Shown here piece by piece: positions 3,461-33,066 of a stretch of 64,000 nucleotides of DNA; position 1 is the first letter of the stretch, and each line of letters starts with the position of its first letter. This DNA comes from a virus, in IMG/VR virus record IMGVR_UViG_3300012931_000015, positions 64,001-128,000 of that record. One strand, 5' to 3'. The translations under genes and the position numbers were made by a program. A model generated the notes under the pieces. The model was not told where the DNA came from, searched no databases, and saw nothing but the letters and a program-made list of their open reading frames with translations.

Positions 3461-4405
3461 TTACTGTTTTGTCAAGTTACTTTTTGAAATAATTTCATTT
3501 ATTTTACATTTGAGTTTATCCGAGAATTCAGCTTTGTATTTTTCAATTCTATCTTTATTTTGTTCTAAAATAGTACAATCCGGTTTTACAAAAACACCAA
3601 CCCTTTTAAAAAGTTTTATTCTGGGGGTTACCGGAATATTTTTATAAGTCCATGTAAAACAAACAGGTACATTATTACTAAGGCAAGCTATTGCTGTATG
3701 AACTCTATTTGTAATTACAAAACTAGCATTCTGATATAACTGATATAAACTATACCAATGACTTAAAAATAAATAATGATCTTTAAACTTCGGTATGTTA
3801 TGTTTTGTGGTTGAAGTATTTTCTATTATGTATACATATTTATAATGTTTTTTTAAATCATTTAAAGTATTTTTTATTTTAGGTATATTATCTTGTAAGC
3901 TATCAATATTAATTACTGCGTATCTTTTTTTATTATTCAATTTTTTATGAATATCACTAAGATAAAAAGCACAATCAATTCCTCTAAAGACATTATTATT
4001 TGATCTGTCAAAAGCTTTATATGTCTCATCATCCCTTATAAAAAAATAATTATTTGATACTTTTTCCATTTCTTTGCAGTAACTTATTTCTATTTCATCA
4101 TAATTAAACATACCTAAACCAAGCCATATCTTAATTGGTTTCAGGCTTAATATATTTCTTATTGCTTGTATCGCATATTCAGAAATTAAAGAACCACATG
4201 CTATAAATATTATATCATAGCTATTAAGTTCTTTCTGAAAAGGTTTTATAAAACTTTTATTATCTTGATTAACAGTTTCAAGAGCTTCAAATAAATCTAT
4301 GTGTTCGTTTGGAAATATTTGTTTTATTAGATATTCTGCGCCGATGTTAATAAATTCATTTCCGGCATTTAAAGAAGTCGGACAGGTCAATAAGGCTATT
4401 CTCAT
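3461..4405 (-). CDS. Polysaccharide pyruvyl transferase family protein
   Basis: NAGNEFI, FIRDDET, DCAF and VITNRVHTAIACL motifs. Confidence 0.8.
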   Translation of the reverse strand: MRIALLTCPTSLNAGNEFINIGAEYLIKQIFPNEHIDLFEALETVNQDNKSFIKPFQKELNSYDIIFIACGSLISEYAIQAIRNILSLKPIKIWLGLGMFNYDEIEISYCKEMEKVSNNYFFIRDDETYKAFDRSNNNVFRGIDCAFYLSDIHKKLNNKKRYAVINIDSLQDNIPKIKNTLNDLKKHYKYVYIIENTSTTKHNIPKFKDHYLFLSHWYSLYQLYQNASFVITNRVHTAIACLSNNVPVCFTWTYKNIPVTPRIKLFKRVGVFVKPDCTILEQNKDRIEKYKAEFSDKLKCKINEIISKSNLTKQ

Positions 4406-4794
4406 TATTCATTGCTCTTTAATTTTATTAGTTTAAATACTTTGTTTTCCATTATTCGTATTACACGGTGAACTTCTGTATCTACTTCTCTTTTTGATAT
4501 TTTTTTAGTTGTGTTACTTGAGAAATCTCTTAGTTTAGCTAGTAACAATTCTAGCACTTCGTGAAATGATGCTTTGTATATTTCTTCTTTTGTTGTAGTT
4601 TTATCTTCTATCCAATCCTTACCCCATGAAAAAATAACGTTTTGAGCTCCATTCATTTCATGCCAGCGAGTAGAAGCTATAGTGCCTTTTTCATCATCTT
4701 CTTCAAAATAGATTTCCCATTCGTGTAAGCTGAAGAAGTCAATGTATTTTGTTATGCTATCTTTAAATAATTTTACTTTTACAGCTTTTGTCAT
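4405..4794 (-). CDS. Hypothetical protein, possible zincin-like fold
   Basis: FHEVLELLL resembles HExxH with the second His replaced. Confidence 0.3.
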   Translation of the reverse strand: MTKAVKVKLFKDSITKYIDFFSLHEWEIYFEEDDEKGTIASTRWHEMNGAQNVIFSWGKDWIEDKTTTKEEIYKASFHEVLELLLAKLRDFSSNTTKKISKREVDTEVHRVIRIMENKVFKLIKLKSNE

Positions 4795-6540: not shown

Positions 6541-6825
6541 TTACATAAAGAAGTTTTTTAATTTAGTAATCATAATATTCCCGACTTCTTTTTTTATTTC
6601 ATTCCCATTATCATCTATTTTTAATAATGTAGGAACACTCATAATAGAATATTTTTCAATTAAATTAAAATTAGTTTCATCTGCTATATTTATGTTTTCT
6701 ATATTTTGTGATAAGTCTAATTCATTTAGATGTTTATTAAGCTGTTTACAAGGTATGCAAGTATCAGAATAAAATTTATATATTTTCATAATTTTTTTCC
6801 TTTTTATATAATTATAATTAACCAC
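6541..6825 (-). CDS. Thioredoxin
   Basis: CIPC redox motif and SVPT cis-Pro motif; directly downstream of the RNR. Confidence 0.9.
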   Translation of the reverse strand: MVNYNYIKRKKIMKIYKFYSDTCIPCKQLNKHLNELDLSQNIENINIADETNFNLIEKYSIMSVPTLLKIDDNGNEIKKEVGNIMITKLKNFFM

Positions 6826-9800
6826 ACAAACTATAAAAACAAGTAGGACATTTCATACACGATTCACTAAAAACTAATTTTTCACCACATTCAGGACAAA
6901 TTACTGATGATTTTTCCCCTACTTTGATATATTTTAAAAGAGCTTTTGCAATACTTTTTTCTAGTGATAAAATTGAGCCTTGTGCTTTCTGTAATTGTTC
7001 AACTATAAATTTTAGATCAATCTCATGTCTTAATGCTAACGATATTAATCTAGTCAACCCTTCATTTGTAGGATTATCATAATATTTATTAATATCTTCT
7101 ATTACAATTTTACCATCAATTTCAACTTGATATATTTTTTTACTTTTCTTTATTAAGAAACATTCTTCAACATTGTCTTCAATATGAACTCCATTTTCTT
7201 TTCCAGCAAAAATCTCAAAAGGTTTATTATCAACCAATCCTAAAAATATATTCCAGCGTTCGCCTTTAAAATTAATTTTATAAATTTTAGTTTTAACTTT
7301 AATAGGTCTTTTTTTAGCAATTCTTTTATCTTGATTATTATCTTCTCTTATTAAGATACCTTCTCTGCATCCATCTCTATAAACAGTTACCCCTATAATA
7401 CCTAATTTATGAGCTTGTAAATATACTTCTTCAATATCTTGTACAGTAGCATTAGAAGGTAAATTAATTGTTTTACTAACACTAAGACTTACATTATAGC
7501 TGACTTTACTTAAAAGTTGTAAATGTTCTAATGGTTTAATGTCGCTTGCAACAACAAAAATTTGTTTTTCTTTATCTGTTAGATATTTTGATTTCTGGCA
7601 TGAACCATTATTACTTGATACTTCTTCTAAAATGTTTAATTTTTTATCAGAATAATTATTATCTAAATATTTATCAAATACAGGATCAGTTATAAATATT
7701 TCATCATATTGTTTATTTAACTTTTCAATTTTACGTTTGTAGGCTAGAGCAAAGACAGGTTCAATACCTCCCGATGTTTCTGCTAAAAACGAAATACTGC
7801 CTGTTGGGGCTATTGAACTTATATAACTATTTCTACTCCCATATTTCTTTAAATCTTTTTGTAGTTGTATTAAATCAATACCCGCAAACTCGTATTCAAT
7901 TTCAAAAAATCTTTTATTTGCATTAATAAATAATTCATAATCATAGCTAGGGTAACTGCCATATTCTTTTGCTAATTTTACAGAAGTTTCCATTCCTTTT
8001 AATGTGAGATATTTAATAACTTTATCTGTGAACTGATAAGCTTCTTCAGAATTATAAGATATATTTAACTTATAAAGACAATGTGCTAAACCCATAATTC
8101 CCAATCCAATTGGTCTAATGTTTAATGTAACATTTTTTATTTTTTCTAATGGATAACTATTATTATCTAGCACACTATTGAGAAAAAAAACACCTTTTTT
8201 AATTAGATCAGCATATTTAATCCAGTCAAATTGATTATCTTTATTTACTAAGTTATATAGGTTTATTGAAGCAAGGCAACAACTAGAGTAAGGAGCAGAA
8301 ACGAATTCGTGGCAATTAGAAATATTAAAACCATAACACCAAAAAGTATGAGATAAATTATTAACTGTAATATCATAAACTTCTTGAATACCTAAAGATT
8401 CTATTTTTTTTATTTCAAATGATTCTTTAATTTTGTTTTTGTTTTTTCTTAATTCACATTTTTGTATTAAAATTTCTAATTTTTCCATTTTATATTTTTG
8501 TAAAAATCCTATTGATTCGTAAAATTTTTGTCTATCATTAGATATTGATAAATCATAAGATTGTTTACATTGATATTCGCCATTTCTGAAATTAACTTTT
8601 TTTGGTTTATTTGTTGTATAGTAAGTTCTTATACCTAAAGAAGATAATATGATCTGTAAAGATTTAATCATATTAAAAGAAGCAGATTTATATGTTATTC
8701 TATCTCCAACTATACTACTATTGGCAGAATATAAACCTCGTAAAAAAGAATATAAATCATCTTTGTTCAATTTTAAAAATCTTTCAGGAATTTGTCTATT
8801 ATATGTTTTGCATATTTCGTGAGGTGTAAGTGATGTTTTTATTTCATAACCATTTTTAAAAGCTTTTTGTCTATCTTTAATTATAAGCTTCTCGACTTCT
8901 GAATTAAAATAATCTTGGTCATTTTTTCCTATAATCAAATATATTAAATTATTACTAGCTTTATGTACTGCTCCATCCCCCAAAACTAAGCCATCCATTA
9001 TATAATCTGGGTTAAATTTTTTTAAAGGTTCATAATTTCCTGATAAAATATCTATACTTTTTGCATTTTTTATTTGTGTTTTTACACCGTTTGTTATTAT
9101 TTCGTGGTTATCTGTTGATTCAAAAGTTCCTGCTGTTGTATAATATCTAAAAACTTCTTTTTTACCTGTACAAAACTTATTTATAACTTTAGTCCAACCT
9201 TCCTTAGACCATATAATGTCATTTATCTCAATATCATTTAAATTTTTTATACCCTGTGGTGTTAATATTTTTGCTGTATTAAGTAAACAAGGATTACTCA
9301 ATACATAATCAGTTACATTCTTTATAGGGCATCTATTCCATGCTATTGAATAGTTCATGAGTCCCGGCTCTGCCGAATTCCAAGCATTTTTAACAATTTT
9401 AAGCCATAACTCACTAACAGTAACTTTATTATTATTTTTATCTATCAAATCTATATATTCACCCGATTTTAATTTTACTTGATGAATGCTTTTAGGATTG
9501 TTTTGTAATTTATTATAAAACTCATCAATTATTTTTACTGAAAAATTAAACCTATTAAATTTTGTTAAATCTTTTTTAGCTTCTATGAAATCTAATATAT
9601 CAGGATGTTCTATTGATAAGATACTTGCCCCTGCACCACGTCTTACTCCATTTTGCTGGATACCATCTAATACAGCATTAAATATATTTATAAAAGGAAG
9701 TGGCCCGGAACTATTTCTATTTAAACTTATTATATTTTCTTGTGAACTTCTAAGCTGGGAATGGTCATAACCGACTCCCCCCGATGCTTTTGTAACTATT

Positions 9801-10060
9801 GCACATTCTTTTAAAGCATCAAAAATACCTTCAATACTATCTTCAATTGCCATAGGAAAACAACTACTAAGAGTACCTTTTCTTTCATTATTTGTATTTG
9901 CGTTCATTAGGGTAGGAGATGAAGGAATAAAATTCATATCTCTTATATCTTCATAAATAGGTTCATATAATTTACTAACTCGTTTTGCTATATCATCCCA
10001 TTCTTTTTCATCTTTTAAAAAATATCTATCCTGTAATAGTTTTAGTATATTGTCATTCAT
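6818..10060 (-). CDS. nrdJ: Class II (B12-dependent) ribonucleotide reductase containing an intein
   Basis: PSSPTLMNA, LSSCF, GGVG, RRGAG, NPC..E, IAPTGSIS, VSKTIN, GVTVYRDG motifs; C-terminal TSCPD-like/Zn-ribbon region; no nrdB nearby. Confidence 0.9.
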   Translation of the reverse strand: MNDNILKLLQDRYFLKDEKEWDDIAKRVSKLYEPIYEDIRDMNFIPSSPTLMNANTNNERKGTLSSCFPMAIEDSIEGIFDALKECAIVTKASGGVGYDHSQLRSSQENIISLNRNSSGPLPFINIFNAVLDGIQQNGVRRGAGASILSIEHPDILDFIEAKKDLTKFNRFNFSVKIIDEFYNKLQNNPKSIHQVKLKSGEYIDLIDKNNNKVTVSELWLKIVKNAWNSAEPGLMNYSIAWNRCPIKNVTDYVLSNPCLLNTAKILTPQGIKNLNDIEINDIIWSKEGWTKVINKFCTGKKEVFRYYTTAGTFESTDNHEIITNGVKTQIKNAKSIDILSGNYEPLKKFNPDYIMDGLVLGDGAVHKASNNLIYLIIGKNDQDYFNSEVEKLIIKDRQKAFKNGYEIKTSLTPHEICKTYNRQIPERFLKLNKDDLYSFLRGLYSANSSIVGDRITYKSASFNMIKSLQIILSSLGIRTYYTTNKPKKVNFRNGEYQCKQSYDLSISNDRQKFYESIGFLQKYKMEKLEILIQKCELRKNKNKIKESFEIKKIESLGIQEVYDITVNNLSHTFWCYGFNISNCHEFVSAPYSSCCLASINLYNLVNKDNQFDWIKYADLIKKGVFFLNSVLDNNSYPLEKIKNVTLNIRPIGLGIMGLAHCLYKLNISYNSEEAYQFTDKVIKYLTLKGMETSVKLAKEYGSYPSYDYELFINANKRFFEIEYEFAGIDLIQLQKDLKKYGSRNSYISSIAPTGSISFLAETSGGIEPVFALAYKRKIEKLNKQYDEIFITDPVFDKYLDNNYSDKKLNILEEVSSNNGSCQKSKYLTDKEKQIFVVASDIKPLEHLQLLSKVSYNVSLSVSKTINLPSNATVQDIEEVYLQAHKLGIIGVTVYRDGCREGILIREDNNQDKRIAKKRPIKVKTKIYKINFKGERWNIFLGLVDNKPFEIFAGKENGVHIEDNVEECFLIKKSKKIYQVEIDGKIVIEDINKYYDNPTNEGLTRLISLALRHEIDLKFIVEQLQKAQGSILSLEKSIAKALLKYIKVGEKSSVICPECGEKLVFSESCMKCPTCFYSLCG
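8315..9289 (-). mobile_element. Intein (325 aa) with LAGLIDADG endonuclease in nrdJ
   Basis: Begins CLLNTAKILTPQG, ends VYDITV...FNISN followed by extein Cys; GLVLGDG and FLRGLYSANS blocks; removal restores NPCHEF. Confidence 0.92.
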
Positions 10061-16314: not shown

Positions 16315-17088
16315 TCATATATTATATTTATAATTACCCTCTGTAAAATATTCTTTGTACCAATCTTTTGTTTTGAAAATTTCTAGCATACCCTTTTGCA
16401 TATCTTCGCCAGCTTTTTTATAATATTCTTGACGATTCTTAAATTCTTTGTCATTACCACTATCATAGGTGATCGAAGTTTGATGTGAAAGCAAAATGGA
16501 GTAATCAACTCCGATGGACAAACCTGCTTTTCTTACAAAATATGAAAAAAAATAATCCGATCCCCAACTTGGGAATCTTGGGTCTAATTTCCAATTAAAA
16601 GAATCCAAAGCGTCCTTAGAAAAAAATGGGGCGATAAAGTCCACCATTGAATGCCCTTTTGTAATCCCGTTAAAATTTTCTTTATTAGGAATTTTCACCA
16701 TATAATCATAACAATAATCCGGCACGGGTTTAATAAGAGAAGGATGCAAAACCCCGATGTCTGGATTTTCTTCTAAATGCTTTATCATATTAGCTAAAGG
16801 GTCAACATTTGGGTATTCAAATTTTATGTCATTTGTTAATAACCACGCTCGGCGTGGATTATATTCTTTAGCAATTTTTAATATTGAATTCATTCCCCCA
16901 GTCAATCTAGTGTTTTGTTCTATACGGTGTGTTGTGCTTTTGGCTATTTTATCTTTTTCACTTCCATTATCAAAGCATATAAGTGTATAAGGTATCTTGA
17001 CAAGTTGTTTAATTTGATTTACAAGAGCATCGGAAAGTGAGGGCATATTATACGACAATACTGCAATAATGTTATCAGAGCTATTCAT
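16315..17088 (-). CDS. GT2 family glycosyltransferase
   Basis: AVLSYN, FDNGS, WLLTNDI, WGSD motifs. Confidence 0.75.
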   Translation of the reverse strand: MNSSDNIIAVLSYNMPSLSDALVNQIKQLVKIPYTLICFDNGSEKDKIAKSTTHRIEQNTRLTGGMNSILKIAKEYNPRRAWLLTNDIKFEYPNVDPLANMIKHLEENPDIGVLHPSLIKPVPDYCYDYMVKIPNKENFNGITKGHSMVDFIAPFFSKDALDSFNWKLDPRFPSWGSDYFFSYFVRKAGLSIGVDYSILLSHQTSITYDSGNDKEFKNRQEYYKKAGEDMQKGMLEIFKTKDWYKEYFTEGNYKYNI

Positions 17089-20184: not shown

Positions 20185-21276
20185 TCAAATTTTCCATTCA
20201 ACATTAAAATAGCCACTTTCTTTTTCAAACTTATTTCCGGTTATAATATTTATTCCTTTGAATTTTGTTGTACATAAATAAGCTGTACCTTTCAATCCTT
20301 TGCGTTTAGCACCATGATTTAAAATATCTTGTTCTATAATTTTCATTTTTCTATTTGTTTTGAATCTTGAAGCTGGCATACCTATAAAACTAAATTGTCT
20401 ATAACTTTGATCTTTTTGATACTCTTCTGTAAGTTTTTCATTTATTAAATCAGATATTTGATCGAGTGTTGAATTTATCGGAGCTTTCACATAATAAAAA
20501 CTGCCACAACCTTCTCTATCAACATTTCTTATTTGAAATTTTTTTATTTCTTTACTTAGTTTATTAATATAAGTTATATTTTTTAGAATAGATTTGCAAT
20601 AAGGGCATTCGGTTATTGTTTCTAAACAACCATGACAATCTTCTGATTTTTTAAATGAAGTATAAGTTTTTATATTATAGTTATTAATATTTTGTTTCAT
20701 ATCTTCACAAGGCACAAAAGTTTCTTCATCCCAATGACATTTGTTATCCATATAAGCACTCCTTTTAATACCAGTATTGCAAATAACCATATTTTATTTT
20801 ATAGTTTTCTTTTCCATAGTATTTATCTAAAAATTGAATAATGTTATAATGTTGTTTTTGAAAATTTTGAATAATTTCTGAAATATTTGTATCAGTTAAA
20901 TCAATTATTAAATCATTGTTTCCTATAAAGTTGGTATAATGAGGATATTCTATATTTAAGTAATAATAAATAAAATCAGGAGCATTTCCCATCTGTAATT
21001 TAATTATTTCTTCTTCGAGTTCATCTGTTATTTCATCCCAAAAATCATTTATTATATTTTGTGATTTAGAGATGGTTTTTACTTCTCCTCCACAAAGTTT
21101 ACAATATTTTCCCTCATAATTATATTTATTGTAAGTTTCATGACATTTTATATATTCAGTTTCAGTTATTTCAACATTTCTATATTGTGGTTCACATTTA
21201 AAATAAATGCCTAAATATTGATGTAAATCTAAACTCATAATTTTATCCTTTAGAAATAAAGATTTAATTTTTATTG

Positions 21277-21305
21277 AGTATAAAATATTTTAGCAGATTT
21301 GTCAA
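21277..21305 (-). promoter_or_regulatory. sigma70-type promoter
   Basis: TTGACA-17 nt-TATACT. Confidence 0.7.
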
Positions 21306-21341
21306 CAATTATTTTTAATTTTTTTTAAAGAAAATAAAAAT

Positions 21342-21425
21342 TGGGAGCCGTGTGAGTCGAACACACCGAGCCCGAAAGCACCAGATTTACAGTCTGACCT
21401 GCCTCCACTTACAGAATAGACTCCC
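21342..21425 (-). tRNA. tRNA-Tyr(GTA)
   Basis: Cloverleaf; loop CT-GTA-AA; long variable arm; TTCGACT T-loop. Confidence 0.9.
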
Positions 21426-21436
21426 ATTTAAAAAAA

Positions 21437-21510
21437 TAGCTTCGGAGGGATTTGAACCCATCACTACACAGAGCTTAAATCTGTTGACTCTTCCGTTGGT
21501 TTACGAAGCC
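21437..21510 (-). tRNA. tRNA-Leu(TAA), short variable loop
   Basis: ACAGA-TTTAAGC-TCTGT anticodon arm; GGCTTCG/CGAAGCT acceptor stem. Confidence 0.85.
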
Positions 21511-21518
21511 ATACTATA

Positions 21519-22451
21519 TTAATTAATTTTCAGTTTTCTTCCTTTTATAAATCCTAATGATATATAAGAATCAAAAGCATTTTTATTTATTGATAATGAT
21601 TTTTTTTCTTTATCGGAATATACCCAAATTTTTCCATAATTATTATTATTTTCTTTTTGTTGATGCCTTATCTTTTTAAATGTATCGTATACTTTTTTAT
21701 GGGGTCTGTGGATTTTTAAAAGTATTTTTTCGTTATCTTTTTTTATCTTACTATATTTTTTCATAATTTTAATTATCTTATGTATGTTTTCCAATTTTAG
21801 TATTTTATCATTTAATGCTTTTACTTCCGCTATTCTTTTAATATCATATTTTTCGATAAAATTTCTAGCTACTGAAATATATTTTTTTGTATCATTAAAT
21901 AATTGTTTCCAAGAAATTCTTAATATGTGCCATCCATTATTTTGTAAATACTCATCTTTTCTTTTATCTCTAATAATATGTTGAATATACCTGTGATGTT
22001 GAGCACCATCAATTTCTATAGCTAACATTTTATTTACCCATGCAAAATCTATATGATATTTGTGAACATGATAATTATATTCATAATTTTTATCTTCAAA
22101 TTCATTCTCTATCACTTTCATAAAAAATTGTTCAGGATATGAAGGTATTCCTTTCCAATGATTAAAACCAATATTTGAAGCTCGTCCTTCCTTATGAGCT
22201 TTTTTCATGCCATCTGAAACTTTTTTCTTAAAATATTTTGTAAAACATTCAGTATTTCCGCATGTTTTAGTATAATTTATATTATTTTTATTTATACAAT
22301 CTTTACCACAGATAGGACATTTGGGTATTATAAAATTATCATATTTAATTTTATATTCTAATAATTTAATATTATGTTTACTATATAGATGTCTACTAAG
22401 TGATTGCAAGTTATTATATTGTTTTATATTACAAATTTTACATACGCCCAT
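21519..22451 (-). CDS. Free-standing Vsr/DUF559-like endonuclease with N-terminal zinc fingers
   Basis: CKIC..H..H and CPIC; IDFAW...AIEIDGAQH...KDEYLQNNGWHILRISW. Confidence 0.8.
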   Translation of the reverse strand: MGVCKICNIKQYNNLQSLSRHLYSKHNIKLLEYKIKYDNFIIPKCPICGKDCINKNNINYTKTCGNTECFTKYFKKKVSDGMKKAHKEGRASNIGFNHWKGIPSYPEQFFMKVIENEFEDKNYEYNYHVHKYHIDFAWVNKMLAIEIDGAQHHRYIQHIIRDKRKDEYLQNNGWHILRISWKQLFNDTKKYISVARNFIEKYDIKRIAEVKALNDKILKLENIHKIIKIMKKYSKIKKDNEKILLKIHRPHKKVYDTFKKIRHQQKENNNNYGKIWVYSDKEKKSLSINKNAFDSYISLGFIKGRKLKIN

Positions 22452-22529
22452 ACATAATTTTTCTCCTTATAGTGAATGATAATAAATTAATTTTTATGAA
22501 TCATAGCTTCCTCACTATATAATATCATT

Positions 22530-22615
22530 CGGAAAACAGAGAACTCGAATCTCATACACTTATCATGTACAATCAGTTTAGCAAACTGTTTCTGCTCCTA
22601 GCAGATTTGTTTTCC
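22530..22615 (-). tRNA. tRNA-Ser(GCT)
   Basis: GGAAAAC/GTTTTCC acceptor, loop TT-GCT-AA, long variable arm, G73. Confidence 0.85.
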
Positions 22616-22617
22616 AT

Positions 22618-22689
22618 AGCCTTCAGTTTGGACTTGAACCAACACAAAATCCTTACAAGGGATTTATACTACCATTATATTATGAAGGC
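22618..22689 (-). tRNA. tRNA-Thr(TGT)
   Basis: GCCTTCA/TGAAGGC acceptor; AATCC-CTTGTAA-GGATT. Confidence 0.9.
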
Positions 22690-22696
22690 GTAAAAT

Positions 22697-22783
22697 CGGA
22701 AGATAGGTCTACTCGAAAGCCATGCTTTTTTCAGCACCTACCGATTTCAAGTCGGCGGTAGTACCCTGACTACTTTATCTTCC
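22697..22783 (-). tRNA. tRNA-Ser(TGA)
   Basis: GGAAGAT/ATCTTCC acceptor; GCCGA-CTTGAAA-TCGGT; long variable arm. Confidence 0.85.
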
Positions 22784-22789
22784 CAAATG

Positions 22790-22863
22790 GGTGTCTATGG
22801 AGAATTGAACTCCAACTATCAGAGCCACAATCTGACGTGCGAACCTTTAACACTTTAGACACC
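22790..22863 (-). tRNA. tRNA-His(GTG)
   Basis: TCAGA-TTGTGGC-TCTGA; G-1:C73 pair. Confidence 0.92.
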
Positions 22864-22895
22864 ACACATAAAGTCAAAATGATATTTGACTATAT

Positions 22896-22967
22896 CGGAT
22901 TTACGGAGAATTGAACTCACGACTTCAGGTTAGACAGACCTGCATACTACCTTTATATTATAAATCC
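22896..22967 (-). tRNA. tRNA-Asp(GTC)
   Basis: GGATTTA/TAAATCC acceptor; CAGGT-CTGTCTA-ACCTG; G73. Confidence 0.9.
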
Positions 22968-22969
22968 AT

Positions 22970-23042
22970 TAGCGGATAGTAGATTTGCACTACTGACCTT
23001 CAGCTTATGAGGCTGTCGAGCTAACTACTGCTCCAATCCGCT
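22970..23042 (-). tRNA. tRNA-Met(CAT), initiator-like body
   Basis: AGCGGAT/ATCCGCT acceptor; GAGC/GCTC D-stem; loop CT-CAT-AA; atypical TGCAAAT T-loop. Confidence 0.85.
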
Positions 23043-23047
23043 ATAAT

Positions 23048-23119
23048 AGCAATTAACCAGCAACGATCTGGTAATTTCAGCTTGGAAGGCTGATGTGTTG
23101 CCTATTACACTATACTTGC
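23048..23119 (-). tRNA. tRNA-Gly(TCC)
   Basis: TCAGC-CTTCCAA-GCTGA; U73; atypical ATCGTTG T-loop. Confidence 0.85.
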
Positions 23120-23143
23120 AAAAAATGTTTTCAAAGATCGTAT

Positions 23144-23214
23144 CAGTGGTTGAAGGTACTGCCCCTTCGCTTTGCGTGCCAAAAACGCAGGTACTACTTT
23201 TATACTAAACCACT
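23144..23214 (-). tRNA. tRNA-Gln(TTG)
   Basis: AGTGGTT/AACCACT acceptor, G73; TGCGT-TTTTGGC-ACGCA; atypical GGCAGTA T-loop. Confidence 0.8.
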
Positions 23215-23216
23215 CT

Positions 23217-23287
23217 TGGAGCTACTCAGAATTGAACTGAGATACTGAGCTTGAAAAGCTCATGTCCTGCCATTAGACGATAGCTCC
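23217..23287 (-). tRNA. tRNA-Glu(TTC)
   Basis: GGAGCTA/TAGCTCC acceptor; TGAGC-TTTTCAA-GCTCA. Confidence 0.92.
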
Positions 23288-23290
23288 ATA

Positions 23291-23337
23291 AAATAAAAAA
23301 GGCTTCAACACAACTTATAATAAATTATGTTAAAGCC
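23291..23337 (-). terminator. Intrinsic terminator immediately upstream of the tRNA array (attenuator)
   Basis: GGCTTTAACATAATTT/AAGTTGTGTTGAAGCC 16-bp stem with 3 G:U pairs, followed by TTTTTTATTTT. Confidence 0.85.
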
Positions 23338-23378
23338 CATATTGAGTTAATATCTCAATAAACTTATTTTAACATAAT
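23324..23378 (-). promoter_or_regulatory. Candidate antiterminator
   Basis: ATTATGTTAAA (23378-23368) pairs perfectly with TTTAACATAAT (23334-23324, terminator 5' arm) and encloses a TATTGAG/CTCAATA hairpin. Confidence 0.7.
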
Positions 23379-23506
23379 ATATACCTTTCATAATCTGTTG
23401 ATTGTAATCCAGATAATAAAAAAGCAGACCCCTGATATTGGAGTTCACTATTACTTGGATTATTTTTATAATTGTGTTTTGGCATAGCCTTTAATAAATT
23501 TTTCAT
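23369..23506 (-). CDS. Candidate attenuator leader peptide, 45 aa (not in ORF track)
   Basis: MKNLLKAMPKHNYKNNPSNSELQYQGSAFLLSGLQSTDYERYILC; lies between promoter and terminator; stop codon inside the antiterminator 5' arm. Confidence 0.65.
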   Translation of the reverse strand: MKNLLKAMPKHNYKNNPSNSELQYQGSAFLLSGLQSTDYERYILC

Positions 23507-23525
23507 AATCTTTTATTGTGTTTGT

Positions 23526-23554
23526 ATTATACACCTTTTATTTAATATTGTCAA
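23526..23554 (-). promoter_or_regulatory. Consensus sigma70 promoter of the tRNA operon
   Basis: TTGACA-17 nt-TATAAT, exact consensus. Confidence 0.9.
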
Positions 23555-24851
23555 TAGTATTAGTAAGTATTTTTACAATAAGTTTACTTTGTAATTTTAT
23601 AATTTTGTTACATCATTAAAGCTTACTGCTATCAAAATACCTGATATTAATCCTCCTATACCACCTATAAGCCAATATACCACAGGATGAATATTTGAAC
23701 CTGAAAGATTGAGAGCCAAGCCTATTAGACCACTTGTAATAATTATAAGAATTGCAAATATTAAGTATTTCATTGTTTAACTCCTTTTATTTTTTGTTTC
23801 TTTTTCTATAAGCCATAATACCACATAATATTTGAATTAAAAGAAATGTTATTTGTACTATAAAAAATATTAAATGATAATTGCTTGAAATAATGTTTAT
23901 TTTTTCTTCACTTATAAAACTTAACATGCCAAAACCAGCATTAAAAAACATAGCTATTAAACATATTATAAAATATTTTTTCATTTTTCATCCTTTAAAT
24001 TTATTAAAATATATTCTTTATCAGTTTTTATAATAATATCATACTTAAAACGATAGTTATCAAAATTTTTTTCAATTTCTTTTTCATTATCATCATCAAT
24101 TGTACTAAAAGGTCTAACTATTTTTATATTTTTTATTTTGCTATTTCCTTGCAATACATTTACACGAACAACATAAGATGAACAAGAAATAAACATAAAT
24201 AAAATTATAATTAAAACTAGTATTTTTTTCATTTTAAATTGCTCTCCTTTTGTTTGTTTCAATATGTTCTTTTTTGTCATGTCTTTCAAACAAATAAAAA
24301 ATAATTGCAGCAATAACACATACTCCAAGAAAAATACAGAATCCCATTATTTTAGCACCTCCGCTTTTATTTTAAATAAACTTCCTCTTATTTTTTCAGT
24401 TTGGGATAGACTATCAACTTTTTCTAAAATGTCTTTGAAATCATAAAGTAGCAGTTCTTTTGCATTCATTACTCGTAACTCTTTCTCTGCTTCTGTTAGT
24501 TCTTGTGTCATAACTTTTACTCCTTATATTAAACTATAATTGAAAACTAATTTAACAAAAACTTGTATTGCTATTATAAATGCTATGCCCCAAATTGCAC
24601 CGAAGATTAAACTTATTCTTATATTTAATTTTTCTTTGTCTGTCATATTTTATTCCTCTAGTCAATATTAGATAGTTTATAAATTTTAATTTTATCTGCC
24701 TTATATAAATTTCTTAATTTTTCAATTAAGGTATTTTTTTCATCCACATTACCTTCAACCTCTGAATAAAAAGTTTTTTCACTAAAAGCAAGATGGTCAT
24801 CTTTATAAACTTCAAATAAACAATTAAATATCATAATATATTACTCTCCTT

Positions 24852-30760: not shown

Positions 30761-32134
30761 TTATTCCTCAATAGTCTGGTCATCTTCAATATTTGTTATT
30801 CCTGTGTCTAATTCTTTTGTTTCGTGCTCTAAAAATTTTGTGGATTTTAATTTATAAGCTTCGATACCACTTTTTTCAATTCTTAACACAATACCTTCTC
30901 TTGGCACAACACAAGAAATATTCATTAGTTCGTTACCCTCAAGATAATCTTTTTTTAGTTTTTCAAGTAAATTTTCAGAAAATTCTTTACTAGAGTCATA
31001 TTCTTCACTATACCCCTGTTCAATCCAATCAAAAACTTTATAGGCAAACCCATAATATAATAATGGTACTGCCTTTATTCCATTTTCTTTGCACCAGTCC
31101 TGTACCTGTTTCATTGAGTATTCAAATACTTTACCATCAATATTTGTAAAAGTTATCCGATAAACATATATTTCAAATTGCCCCTGATTACAACCATAAT
31201 CATATCCTTTCTGAATATAACTGTTGTCCCCTAGATAACCAACTATTTCATAATAAATTGTCATGTTATTCTGCAATATTGGTAATAACCTGTCGTGAGC
31301 TCTTTTCCAAATATCTTCACTATAAAAGTCTGTAGGTTTCTTTGGGGTTTTATCATTATAAACAAACTGATTTTTTATAACACGGCGGGAAGCATACAAG
31401 TCTCTGTATTCTTTATCAACAATATTAACCCCAACTCTTTTTAGAATTTTCTCAAGAATGTTTAGTTTTTTGTTACATAAAATTTTACTTGATATAGAAC
31501 TTGTCCCGTGCATTTTTAAAGTTAAGGAAATTAAATCTTTTCCATTAGAATCAAGTTTATGTAAATTTCTTCCTAATTGTGAAGTATCTTCATGAAAATG
31601 AAATTGATTTTCAATAAGTAAATTAAATCTATTAAGATATTCTTTTCGTTTCTGCCCTGATCTCGATGTTGAATCATTTCTAACTACAACATATTTTTCA
31701 CATATTTTTATTCCGTTTAATTCATCAAACTCTGTACCTTCTATAAATCTATTATTATCAACATCTTCATATATTGCTGGAGAAGGAATATTTTTAAGAC
31801 TTTCAATAGGTATCCAAAACCCTTCTGATTTATTTTGTCGAAACTTAGCACACCTTATTCTTCCATTTTCTTCAAAGTAGCCTTTCTTTTCTTTATCAAC
31901 ATTTAGTTCCGGTTTTCTATAAAGATTATTATATGATAAAAATTCAGGTGATAGCTTTGTTTCAACAGGAAAAAATAACCCTAAATCACCAATTTTAACA
32001 TCTTTACTAACGATTACTAAATTACCAAAAATTGAGGTATGAACTACATTATCACAATTTGATAATGGGATAATATTTTTAATACTTACTACCACAGCGC
32101 AGTAATTTTTGTTTACGGGGTCTTTAATTCTCAT
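30761..32134 (-). CDS. ATP-dependent RNA ligase (Rnl2/DRB0094-like, N-terminal OB-fold)
   Basis: LKMHGTS adenylation motif, YYEIVG, REGIVL, YKLKS. Confidence 0.85.
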   Translation of the reverse strand: MRIKDPVNKNYCAVVVSIKNIIPLSNCDNVVHTSIFGNLVIVSKDVKIGDLGLFFPVETKLSPEFLSYNNLYRKPELNVDKEKKGYFEENGRIRCAKFRQNKSEGFWIPIESLKNIPSPAIYEDVDNNRFIEGTEFDELNGIKICEKYVVVRNDSTSRSGQKRKEYLNRFNLLIENQFHFHEDTSQLGRNLHKLDSNGKDLISLTLKMHGTSSISSKILCNKKLNILEKILKRVGVNIVDKEYRDLYASRRVIKNQFVYNDKTPKKPTDFYSEDIWKRAHDRLLPILQNNMTIYYEIVGYLGDNSYIQKGYDYGCNQGQFEIYVYRITFTNIDGKVFEYSMKQVQDWCKENGIKAVPLLYYGFAYKVFDWIEQGYSEEYDSSKEFSENLLEKLKKDYLEGNELMNISCVVPREGIVLRIEKSGIEAYKLKSTKFLEHETKELDTGITNIEDDQTIEE

Positions 32135-32154
32135 TTTATTTCCTTATTATTTTA

Positions 32155-33066
32155 TTAAAATTTATTCTTGCAATAGACATCTTGATTTACATTAAAAGTA
32201 AACAATCCTAAGCTCTGCCACATATCAAGAACTTTAGGACGATCATCAATTACAAATAATACATTGTATTTGTCTTTTATTTCATTTTCATATATTTCTT
32301 TTTTTATTATGTTGTCCGGTCTGTTGTCATCAGCTTTTCTCATTAATAGTTTGTCAAACGGAATGTTGTTTTTATCTAACCATCTGATAGTTTGTTCTTT
32401 ACAGGAATCTTTTCTACCTGACAATAGAATTTTTGTAACTTCCCTATCATTTTTAATATTGTTAAGTATAAATTTAACAGGATAAATAACTTGATCTTCT
32501 ATAACTTTTGTTTCATCAAATTGCTGTCTTGACACATTTTTTGCAAGTGTGCCATCTAGGTCAATTATAGCACAATCTGGTAAATAAACATTATATTTAA
32601 TTTTTGGTTTTGAATCTTCTACCATTCTTCTTAGTTCAATCTCGTATTTTCTCCAAGTATTTTTTAATACATTCTCCCCGATAGAAAATTCTCTATTTTT
32701 ATCTCGTTCAATAGCTTCACCAAGCGTAATCGGAAATTCTTTTATTTCAATATCAATAATAACCGAACTTAAAGCTTCTTTTATTTTTCTAATATCTTCA
32801 TTAAGGGTTGTGTTATTTAAATTCATTTTGTCAACAATAACATTATAATTGTTTTTTAAAAGAGTTATTATTGCTTGGTATTCTAATTCGGTAACAAGTT
32901 TTTCTGTTTCTTTAGAAAAGGAATAGTTATCAAGCATGTGTCTAAAAGCATCACGATTTACAATTCTGTAATCTTTATTGGTTTTTACAAATTCTTTAGC
33001 ATAAAAACTTTTTCCGCTTGCCTGCATGCCACGCAAATATATTATTTTCATATTTAATCCTTTCAT
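32155..33066 (-). CDS. pseT: Polynucleotide 5'-kinase/3'-phosphatase
   Basis: GMQASGKS P-loop, NRD, DLDGTLA HAD motif, SGR, IDDR. Confidence 0.92.
   Translation of the reverse strand: MKGLNMKIIYLRGMQASGKSFYAKEFVKTNKDYRIVNRDAFRHMLDNYSFSKETEKLVTELEYQAIITLLKNNYNVIVDKMNLNNTTLNEDIRKIKEALSSVIIDIEIKEFPITLGEAIERDKNREFSIGENVLKNTWRKYEIELRRMVEDSKPKIKYNVYLPDCAIIDLDGTLAKNVSRQQFDETKVIEDQVIYPVKFILNNIKNDREVTKILLSGRKDSCKEQTIRWLDKNNIPFDKLLMRKADDNRPDNIIKKEIYENEIKDKYNVLFVIDDRPKVLDMWQSLGLFTFNVNQDVYCKNKF

Follow-up and report, generated by a model that had tools for sequence, protein, structure and literature searches.

Introduction

Short leader peptides control transcription in the classical attenuators of enterobacteria, such as trpL, hisL, leuL and pheL and the leaders of the ilvGMEDA (Ile/Val/Leu) and thr (Thr/Ile) operons. 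In attenuators of the ilvGMEDA and thr type, a short promoter-proximal open reading frame (ORF) places its regulatory codons just 5′ of a segment that is able to pair with the 5′ arm of a terminator. Antiterminator and terminator are mutually exclusive in these leaders, and the position of the ribosome, which may report on several amino acids per leader, is converted into either termination or read-through. Here we describe a locus with this anatomy that precedes an array of tRNA genes on the minus strand of a phage genome. The locus is contained in a window of 64,000 nucleotides (nt) comprising bases 64001–128000 of the 163.6-kb IMG/VR contig IMGVR_UViG_3300012931_000015, which is estimated to be 74% complete (positions refer to the window unless stated otherwise). 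We consider it somewhat probable that the locus is a multivalent leader-peptide transcription attenuator of the trp/ilv type, which gates the phage tRNA operon.

The proposed attenuator differs from its enterobacterial counterparts in several respects. Whereas the latter control biosynthetic enzymes, the genes downstream of the described leader are phage-encoded tRNAs. The enterobacterial leaders contain tandem repeats of codons for one to three amino acids, whereas about ten amino acids are sampled here, most of them once or a few times each. Finally, the stop codon of the enterobacterial leaders precedes the antiterminator arm, while it is located inside the arm in the phage leader, which also lacks a 1:2-type anti-antiterminator and a Shine-Dalgarno (SD) sequence. 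A second point of comparison is provided by the T-box riboswitches of Firmicutes (RF00230), where a leader RNA upstream of genes of the translation apparatus equally reports the status of tRNAs by a choice between terminator and antiterminator. However, T-boxes bind the uncharged tRNA directly via a specifier loop and a conserved T-box bulge and do not require translation, in contrast to the present leader, which is an ORF.

The presence of tRNA genes in phages is currently explained by the compensation of differences in codon usage or by the replacement of host tRNAs that were destroyed by nucleases, and the control of their expression has hardly been studied. An initial annotation of the locus, made by a model from the sequence, had proposed that the leader acts as sensor of multiple tRNAs and stated that no phage tRNA array controlled in this way was known to it. 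In line with this statement, our literature search, which was not exhaustive and could not cover old scans, returned no description of attenuation or of a leader peptide ahead of phage tRNA genes.

Results

A single promoter precedes the terminator and the tRNA array

The features of the locus are compiled in Table 1. Transcription is proposed to originate at the promoter P1, which had been annotated as an exact TTGACA-17-TATAAT sequence and which indeed matches the consensus at every position. Exact promoters of this type are found five times in the entire contig, in all five cases on the minus strand, which contains the majority of the genes. From the spacing of the promoter elements, the transcription start is predicted at about position 23519. 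The first strong promoter following P1, which starts the next transcription unit and thus bounds the tRNA operon, is encountered only past tRNA-Tyr. A separate promoter downstream of the terminator had been named in the initial annotation as an observation that would contradict attenuation, and between the terminator and tRNA-Ser-GCU we find no promoter-like site on the minus strand that scores higher than 9/12. Since the first nine tRNAs lack any other good promoter, their transcription must cross the terminator. As read from the sequence, the tRNA operon has its natural promoter in P1. That the terminator is a control point rather than a mere gene end finds its strongest structural argument in the passage of all tRNA-Glu transcripts through this site.

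Besides the exact promoters, we noticed a motif, TACTAATA, that resembles a variant −10 element of phage promoters. The minus strand of the whole contig contains 28 copies and the plus strand 9, where about 19–20 would be expected per strand, and the motif is often located 20–45 nt ahead of an SD sequence and an ATG and sometimes 17–18 nt 3′ of a TTGACA. One of its copies (23565–23558, minus strand) abuts the −35 element of P1.

Table 1. Coordinates of the predicted elements of the leader region, the tRNA operon and associated genes.
Feature	Position	Strand	Evidence and remarks
PNKP (303 amino acids; kinase and HAD_PNKP phosphatase, 1.5e-39) directly upstream of RNA ligase (457 amino acids; PF09414/PF21189)	30761–33066	minus	domain matches
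Promoter P1, TTGACA-17-TATAAT	23526–23554	minus	12/12 match
Leader ORF, 45 codons and TAA	23369–23506	minus	ORF list
Small GC-rich hairpin within ORF, 5 base pairs, codons 21–27, followed by CUGCUUUUUU	23428–23444 (through CUGCUUUUUU: 23444–23418)	minus	list of terminator-like hairpins; −4.1 kcal/mol
Antiterminator 5′ arm, AUUAUGUUAAA	23368–23378	minus	pairs with 23334–23324, 11 Watson-Crick pairs
Inner hairpin within antiterminator loop	23340–23360	minus	folds; present in both conformations
Shared segment, UUUAACAUAAU	23324–23334	minus	antiterminator 3′ arm and part of terminator 5′ arm
Intrinsic terminator, 18-base-pair stem and 3-nt loop (23338–23300), T-tract (23299–23290)	23289–23338	minus	terminator scan
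Nine tRNA genes: Glu-UUC, Gln-UUG-like, Gly-UCC, Met-CAU, Asp-GUC, His-GUG, Ser-UGA, Thr-UGU, Ser-GCU	22530–23288	minus	ARAGORN, Rfam, cloverleaf fold
DUF559/MTES_1575 endonuclease-like ORF, 310 amino acids, own SD	21519–22451	minus	Pfam PF18741 3.5e-12, PF04480 3.6e-9
tRNA-Leu-UAA and tRNA-Tyr-GUA, end of array	21341–21511	minus	ARAGORN, Rfam; T-run 3′ of tRNA-Tyr
Next promoter, TTGACA-17-TATACT	21277–21305	minus	11/12 match; starts following unit, bounds tRNA operon

The array was initially described to encode 11 tRNAs, ten of which are recovered by ARAGORN and Rfam across thresholds. Seven are found by ARAGORN with default settings, Rfam adds tRNA-Asp, and at a lowered threshold of 90% ARAGORN calls tRNA-Asp, tRNA-Ser-UGA and tRNA-Ser-GCU. 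The remaining gene, a tRNA-Gln(UUG)-like sequence at about 23214–23144 on the minus strand, is called by neither program, even if the threshold of ARAGORN is reduced to 70%. In its minimum-free-energy fold, this sequence adopts a clean 7/4/5/5 cloverleaf in which UUUUGGC forms the anticodon loop. Its D and T loops, however, are non-canonical and devoid of the conserved GG and UUC, respectively. The gene may encode either a tRNA mimic or a tRNA that is functional but divergent. At another site of the contig (plus strand, contig positions 16619–16691), there is a canonical tRNA-Gln(UUG).

The terminator competes with an alternative pairing that includes the leader stop codon

In its terminal part, the leader contains an intrinsic terminator with a stem that is followed by TTTTTATTTT. 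The hairpin and the T-tract had both been recognized in the initial annotation, which assigned 16 base pairs (bp) to the stem where we count 18. When all T-runs of the contig are scanned, this element ranks as the strongest combination of hairpin and T-run with an energy of −18.8 kcal/mol compared to −14.2 kcal/mol of the runner-up, and the hairpin by itself accounts for −20.4 kcal/mol. The gene of tRNA-Glu, which starts at 23287/23288, begins 12 nt past the stem, consistent with the previously noted distance of a few nucleotides.

The alternative structure is a perfect 11-bp helix, which was equally found as described. Its 5′ arm (A UUA UGU UAA A) begins with the final base of codon 43, continues through codons 44 and 45 and the stop codon TAA (23371–23369) and ends one base further, and its 3′ arm coincides with a portion of the terminator 5′ arm. 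The sequence AUUAUGUUAAA resembles the opposing stretch of the terminator 3′ arm, GUUGUGUUGAA, with 8 of 11 positions being identical and all three differences being exchanges between A and G. A perfect complement of 11 bp to the arm of a terminator within at most 120 nt upstream is rare, with p-values of 0.002–0.003 in shuffled sequences and random genomic segments, and the 28 remaining terminator-like hairpins of the contig all lack an upstream complement longer than 8.

The balance between both structures depends on the length of the transcript and on the accessibility of the stop codon. If transcripts are allowed to grow from the predicted start and the minimum-free-energy fold is determined for each 3′ end, the antiterminator prevails as long as this end lies between 23324 and 23306, and the terminator fold takes over from the 3′ end at 23300, once the last 6 nt with the GC-rich base of the stem (GAAGCCU) have emerged. 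If the stop codon is masked by a ribosome footprint, the terminator is the sole structure to form in the fold. The comparison of folds with and without a blocked stop region that had been suggested initially yields nothing but the terminator in the former case, while the unblocked nascent RNA favors the antiterminator first. In the fold of the segment 23400–23289, the energy is −27.5 kcal/mol with the terminator and −19.2 kcal/mol if the antiterminator is enforced. The assumption that the antiterminator helix would be more stable than the part of the terminator it competes with turned out to be wrong (−7.7 compared to −8.1 kcal/mol).

The inner hairpin in the loop of the antiterminator (UUGAG-AUAUUAA-CUCAA) resembles an anticodon stem-loop, in that a stem of 5 bp closes a loop of 7 nt with U as its second and A as its sixth nucleotide, a form that may be due to chance in AT-rich RNA.

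The leader ORF has a gene-like codon usage and is enriched in codons of the downstream tRNAs

The ORF of 45 codons that had been reported in the leader was found at the same location, and three of its properties are each unlikely to occur by chance, namely its length, its gene-like codon usage and its enrichment in codons cognate to the array. An ORF of at least 45 codons starting with ATG is expected in 231 nt of such composition with p-values of 0.013–0.017. Its codon-usage score of 0.325 is close to the value of windows within genes (0.36 ± 0.12), compared to 0.006 ± 0.20 for spurious ORFs of the same size, of which 5.6% attain the level of the leader.

The last 20 sense codons ahead of the antiterminator arm are mostly read by the downstream tRNAs. 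Of codons 21–40, 17 are cognate to tRNAs of the array (p = 0.0006 for gene windows and 0.0012 for random sets of 11 tRNA families), whereas array-cognate codons make up 40–47% of the codons in genes. As claimed in the initial annotation, a codon for each of the 11 array tRNAs is present in the ORF, for which we obtain a p-value of 0.03–0.08. It was also proposed that codons 30–40 form an uninterrupted run of 11 codons that are readable by array tRNAs. This holds if TCT is read by tRNA-Ser(UGA), but under strict wobble rules the longest run shrinks to eight codons. The rarity of such runs, which had been called for as a check, is reflected in a p-value of 0.005 for a length of at least 11, with just five cases in 43,200 gene codons, and the joint probability of a run of this length and the representation of all 11 tRNAs is about 0.001–0.002.

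The database search with the leader peptide revealed no homologues among 5.8 billion proteins. Their absence fits a leader peptide and equally fits a non-gene, and the ORF has neither the homologues nor the SD sequence, comparable to that of other genes of the phage, that would identify it as an ordinary gene of a small protein.

A comparable layout precedes tRNA blocks of the Caulobacter phage phiCbK

A related arrangement is found in the Caulobacter phage phiCbK (JX100813, regions 4310–4510 and 2541–2770 inspected), where rho-independent terminators annotated by the depositors precede two of the tRNA blocks by 11–23 nt and a third block by 128 nt. The Pro/Lys/Leu/Ser block is preceded by gp083, a protein annotated with a length of 45 amino acids, 23 of which (51%) are Ser, Leu, Pro or Lys. 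The ORF ahead of the Phe/Val/Ile/Gln block reads MSKTYRQFVRQIQVVRNI... (...QFVRQIQVVRNI...), starts 7 nt past a TTGACA-17-TAGGGT promoter, and appears to be leaderless. Within this ORF, CCGGGCGGGCC repeats the terminator 3′ arm CCAGGCGGGCC at 10 of 11 positions. Common to both phages are a promoter, a short ORF in which amino acids of the respective block are enriched and which includes a near-copy of the terminator 3′ arm, and a terminator that immediately precedes the first tRNA. Conversely, phiCbK has a GC content of 66%, infects an alphaproteobacterial host and shows no sequence relationship to the present phage, and it contains several blocks with their own leaders instead of a single leader for eleven tRNAs. 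As at the present locus, control by its leaders is a prediction from sequence, and the genome paper of phiCbK does not mention units of a small ORF and a terminator before tRNA blocks (PMC3556154). The recurrence in phiCbK raises the prior probability that the layout is a real and recurrent design.

Proposed mechanism of the attenuator

The regulatory geometry of the leader is compatible with a response to the position of the ribosome. Codons up to 39 are located at least 12 nt upstream of the antiterminator arm and, given this geometry and textbook footprint sizes, a ribosome whose A site has advanced no further than codon 39 would leave the arm free. A ribosome on the stop codon would, in this model, cover the antiterminator 5′ arm. 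During transcription of the leader, the ribosome would trail RNA polymerase, and both might be synchronized by the small hairpin inside the ORF and the U-run CUGCUUUUUU, a possible pause site of the polymerase that would couple the two machineries and be released by the following ribosome. Upon smooth decoding, the ribosome would reach the stop codon and cover the arm, which would allow the terminator to form and leave little tRNA precursor. If, on the other hand, one of the sampled tRNAs (Leu, Ser, Gly, Gln, Thr, Asp, Tyr, Glu and others) were scarce, uncharged or cleaved, the ribosome would stall at codons 21–39, the free arm would engage in the antiterminator and the array would be transcribed. 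The newly produced phage tRNAs would then restore decoding and shut the switch, thus closing a feedback loop of supply and demand.

As natural triggers, we consider a defense of the host by anticodon nucleases, a mismatch in codon usage or general translation stress. Cleavage of tRNAs by anticodon nucleases may be such a trigger in light of a pair of genes encoding a polynucleotide kinase-phosphatase (PNKP) and an RNA ligase, which is found 7–9 kb upstream of the tRNA locus on the same strand. In T4, a PNKP and RNA ligase pair of this type repairs tRNAs that were cut by anticodon nucleases. The pair shows that the phage invests in the integrity of tRNAs, which is not evidence on what triggers the attenuator.

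Limits of the proposal and alternative explanations

Several observations weigh against a leader-peptide attenuator. Most genes of the contig carry SD sequences of the AGGAG type. As correctly cautioned in the initial annotation, the leader lacks a strong site: the interaction energy of the 18 nt 5′ of its ATG with the anti-SD of −1.5 kcal/mol equals that of random positions and is weaker than in 84% of the called genes. The predicted 5′ untranslated region is merely about 13 nt long, and the other two exact promoters with an identifiable start codon downstream are, unlike P1, followed by strong AGGAG sites. Since there is no anti-antiterminator of the 1:2 type, transcripts that are not translated should read through, which would narrow the regulatory range in case of poor initiation. 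The antiterminator is AU-rich and weak, with a duplex energy of −7.7 to −9.1 kcal/mol that is reached by 16–18% of random sequences, and at equilibrium the terminator accounts for 99.6% of the ensemble (pair probability 0.996). The statistics of the leader are post hoc, having been chosen after the ORF was seen in the initial annotation, and those on codons and runs lean in part on the tRNA-Gln-like gene missed by ARAGORN and Rfam. Without this gene, 14 of 20 codons remain cognate (p = 0.019) and the longest run is reduced to five. Moreover, the commonest codons of the leader encode Lys and Asn, for which the array contains no matching tRNA. The initially proposed sensor of multiple tRNAs is thus upheld with respect to its anatomy and geometry, which fit an attenuator of the trp/ilv type, while its translation is left without the help of an SD sequence and its statistical backing partly depends on a tRNA that is not called.

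The proposal also has to stand without comparative support of its own, and the locus belongs to an isolated low-GC lineage. Searches with the exact sequences of the terminator, tRNA-Glu and tRNA-Gln in viral, metagenome and genome contigs returned nothing useful, and proteins encoded in the neighborhood did not lead to a relative of the locus in IMG/VR or the phage collection. More than 2,500 homologues of the RNA ligase were found at up to 60% identity, many of them on phage-sized contigs of 200–300 kb, as were homologues of a downstream protein of 157 amino acids at up to 56% identity, in both cases on contigs without tRNAs nearby. A nucleotidyltransferase of 201 amino acids is an orphan among the 5.8 billion proteins, and there is no close relative of the phage in the phage, viral-contig, metagenome and genome collections searched. 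Three metagenome contigs that were matched in these searches contain unrelated arrays sharing a tRNA T-arm and were discarded as relatives.

Among the alternatives, the locus could be a real attenuator of the tRNA operon that operates independently of translation, with a fortuitous ORF. Read-through would in this case be set by an RNA-binding or antitermination factor of the phage or host, by the speed of RNA polymerase or the levels of nucleoside triphosphates at U-runs, or it would be a fixed leak that defines the dose of tRNAs. The confirmed layout of promoter, leader, terminator and promoterless genes is shared by this explanation, and it would account for the missing SD sequence, which argues against efficient translation, and for the folding of the leader, which is much better than in shuffled sequences (z score of −3.7), as expected for a structured regulatory RNA. 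It is at odds with an ORF of gene-like codon usage that fills the leader with a chance probability of about 0.015, with a stop codon that falls within the antiterminator arm, and with distal codons that match the array at a p-value of about 0.001. Neither a candidate factor nor a binding repeat was identified, and Rfam detects no known family, including T-boxes and described riboswitches, at E-values up to 1. We thus regard control without translation as unlikely. A T-box or other known RNA family was rejected, as tRNAs are the only Rfam matches at this cutoff in the region 20500–24500.

It would be more surprising if the stretch from P1 to the terminator were an autonomous cassette, encoding either a small orphan protein or, with a length of about 220 nt, a stable small RNA, with the tRNAs being expressed only by leak-through from this cassette and from upstream transcripts and with a coincidental codon match and pairing. 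Small ORFs are ubiquitous in the phage, as is evident from its ORF list, stable RNAs adjoin the tRNA genes of T4, and the combination of an exact promoter with the strongest terminator of the contig would yield an abundant short RNA, in line with the dominance of the terminator at equilibrium and a peptide that lacks homologues. Such a cassette would, however, mean that none of the eleven tRNA genes has its own promoter. It would neither explain the perfect 11-bp complement and its inclusion of the stop codon nor the 17 cognate codons, and it is difficult to reconcile with the recurrence of the layout ahead of the phiCbK blocks, where different peptides match different arrays. Finally, a chance assembly, in which the hairpin ends an upstream operon, the promoter is incidental in DNA with a GC content of 26% and the ORF is non-coding, draws on the abundance of weak AU helices and of promoter-like sites in AT-rich DNA (81 found compared to 61 expected in shuffles), but is highly improbable in view of the scarcity of 12/12 promoters, their confinement to the gene strand and the coincidence of several independent low-probability features within 270 nt.

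Implications of the proposed leader-peptide attenuator for phage tRNA arrays

If the locus is a leader-peptide attenuator, the phage would measure decoding capacity directly and make tRNAs on demand, and a textbook mechanism of amino-acid operons would extend to the translation machinery itself in the form of a compact and portable sensor of tRNA availability. As the phage also carries the PNKP and RNA ligase repair pair, it would offer a testable link between immunity that targets tRNAs and the counter-measures of phages. More broadly, and in our view with a little less than even chances, phage tRNA arrays might commonly be self-regulating sensors of decoding, which combine a test ORF written in the codons of the array with a switch between terminator and antiterminator. 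Slow decoding of any array codon would then turn on tRNA synthesis, with host defenses that cleave tRNAs being one cause, and the AT-rich phage of an SD-using host described here would be an instance independent of phiCbK. Such sensors would constitute a widespread regulatory class of which we found no description in the literature.

Genes within and around the array and additional observations

The array is split between tRNA-Ser-GCU and tRNA-Leu by the endonuclease-like ORF, whose product has a zinc-finger-like N-terminus. To our knowledge, no leader-peptide attenuator has been described for T4, whose tRNA cluster is similarly broken by a gene of the homing endonuclease type, with the caveat that the literature was not searched exhaustively. 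In the T4 cluster, this gene is segB (PMC2330249) and, by analogy, the inserted ORF probably encodes a homing endonuclease, although the enzyme is of the GIY-YIG type in T4 and DUF559/MTES_1575-like in the present phage. In the tRNA region of one T5-like phage, the tRNAs are interleaved with many small coding sequences, and small ORFs in this region of T5 may have been a subject of papers in the 1980s.

At a distance from the tRNA locus, we found an exact TTGACA-16-TATAAT promoter (56770–56700, minus strand) that is immediately followed by a 10-bp hairpin (AAGCAUUAUUA...UAGUAGUGCUU) and GUUUUAUUUU. This arrangement precedes a gene encoding a DnaB-like helicase and could either be a second promoter-proximal terminator or attenuator or a stem-loop that stabilizes the 5′ end of the transcript. 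In the large subunit of a ribonucleotide reductase (1080 amino acids; 6818–10060, minus strand), a LAGLIDADG domain is located in the middle of the barrel domain and thus probably belongs to an intein.

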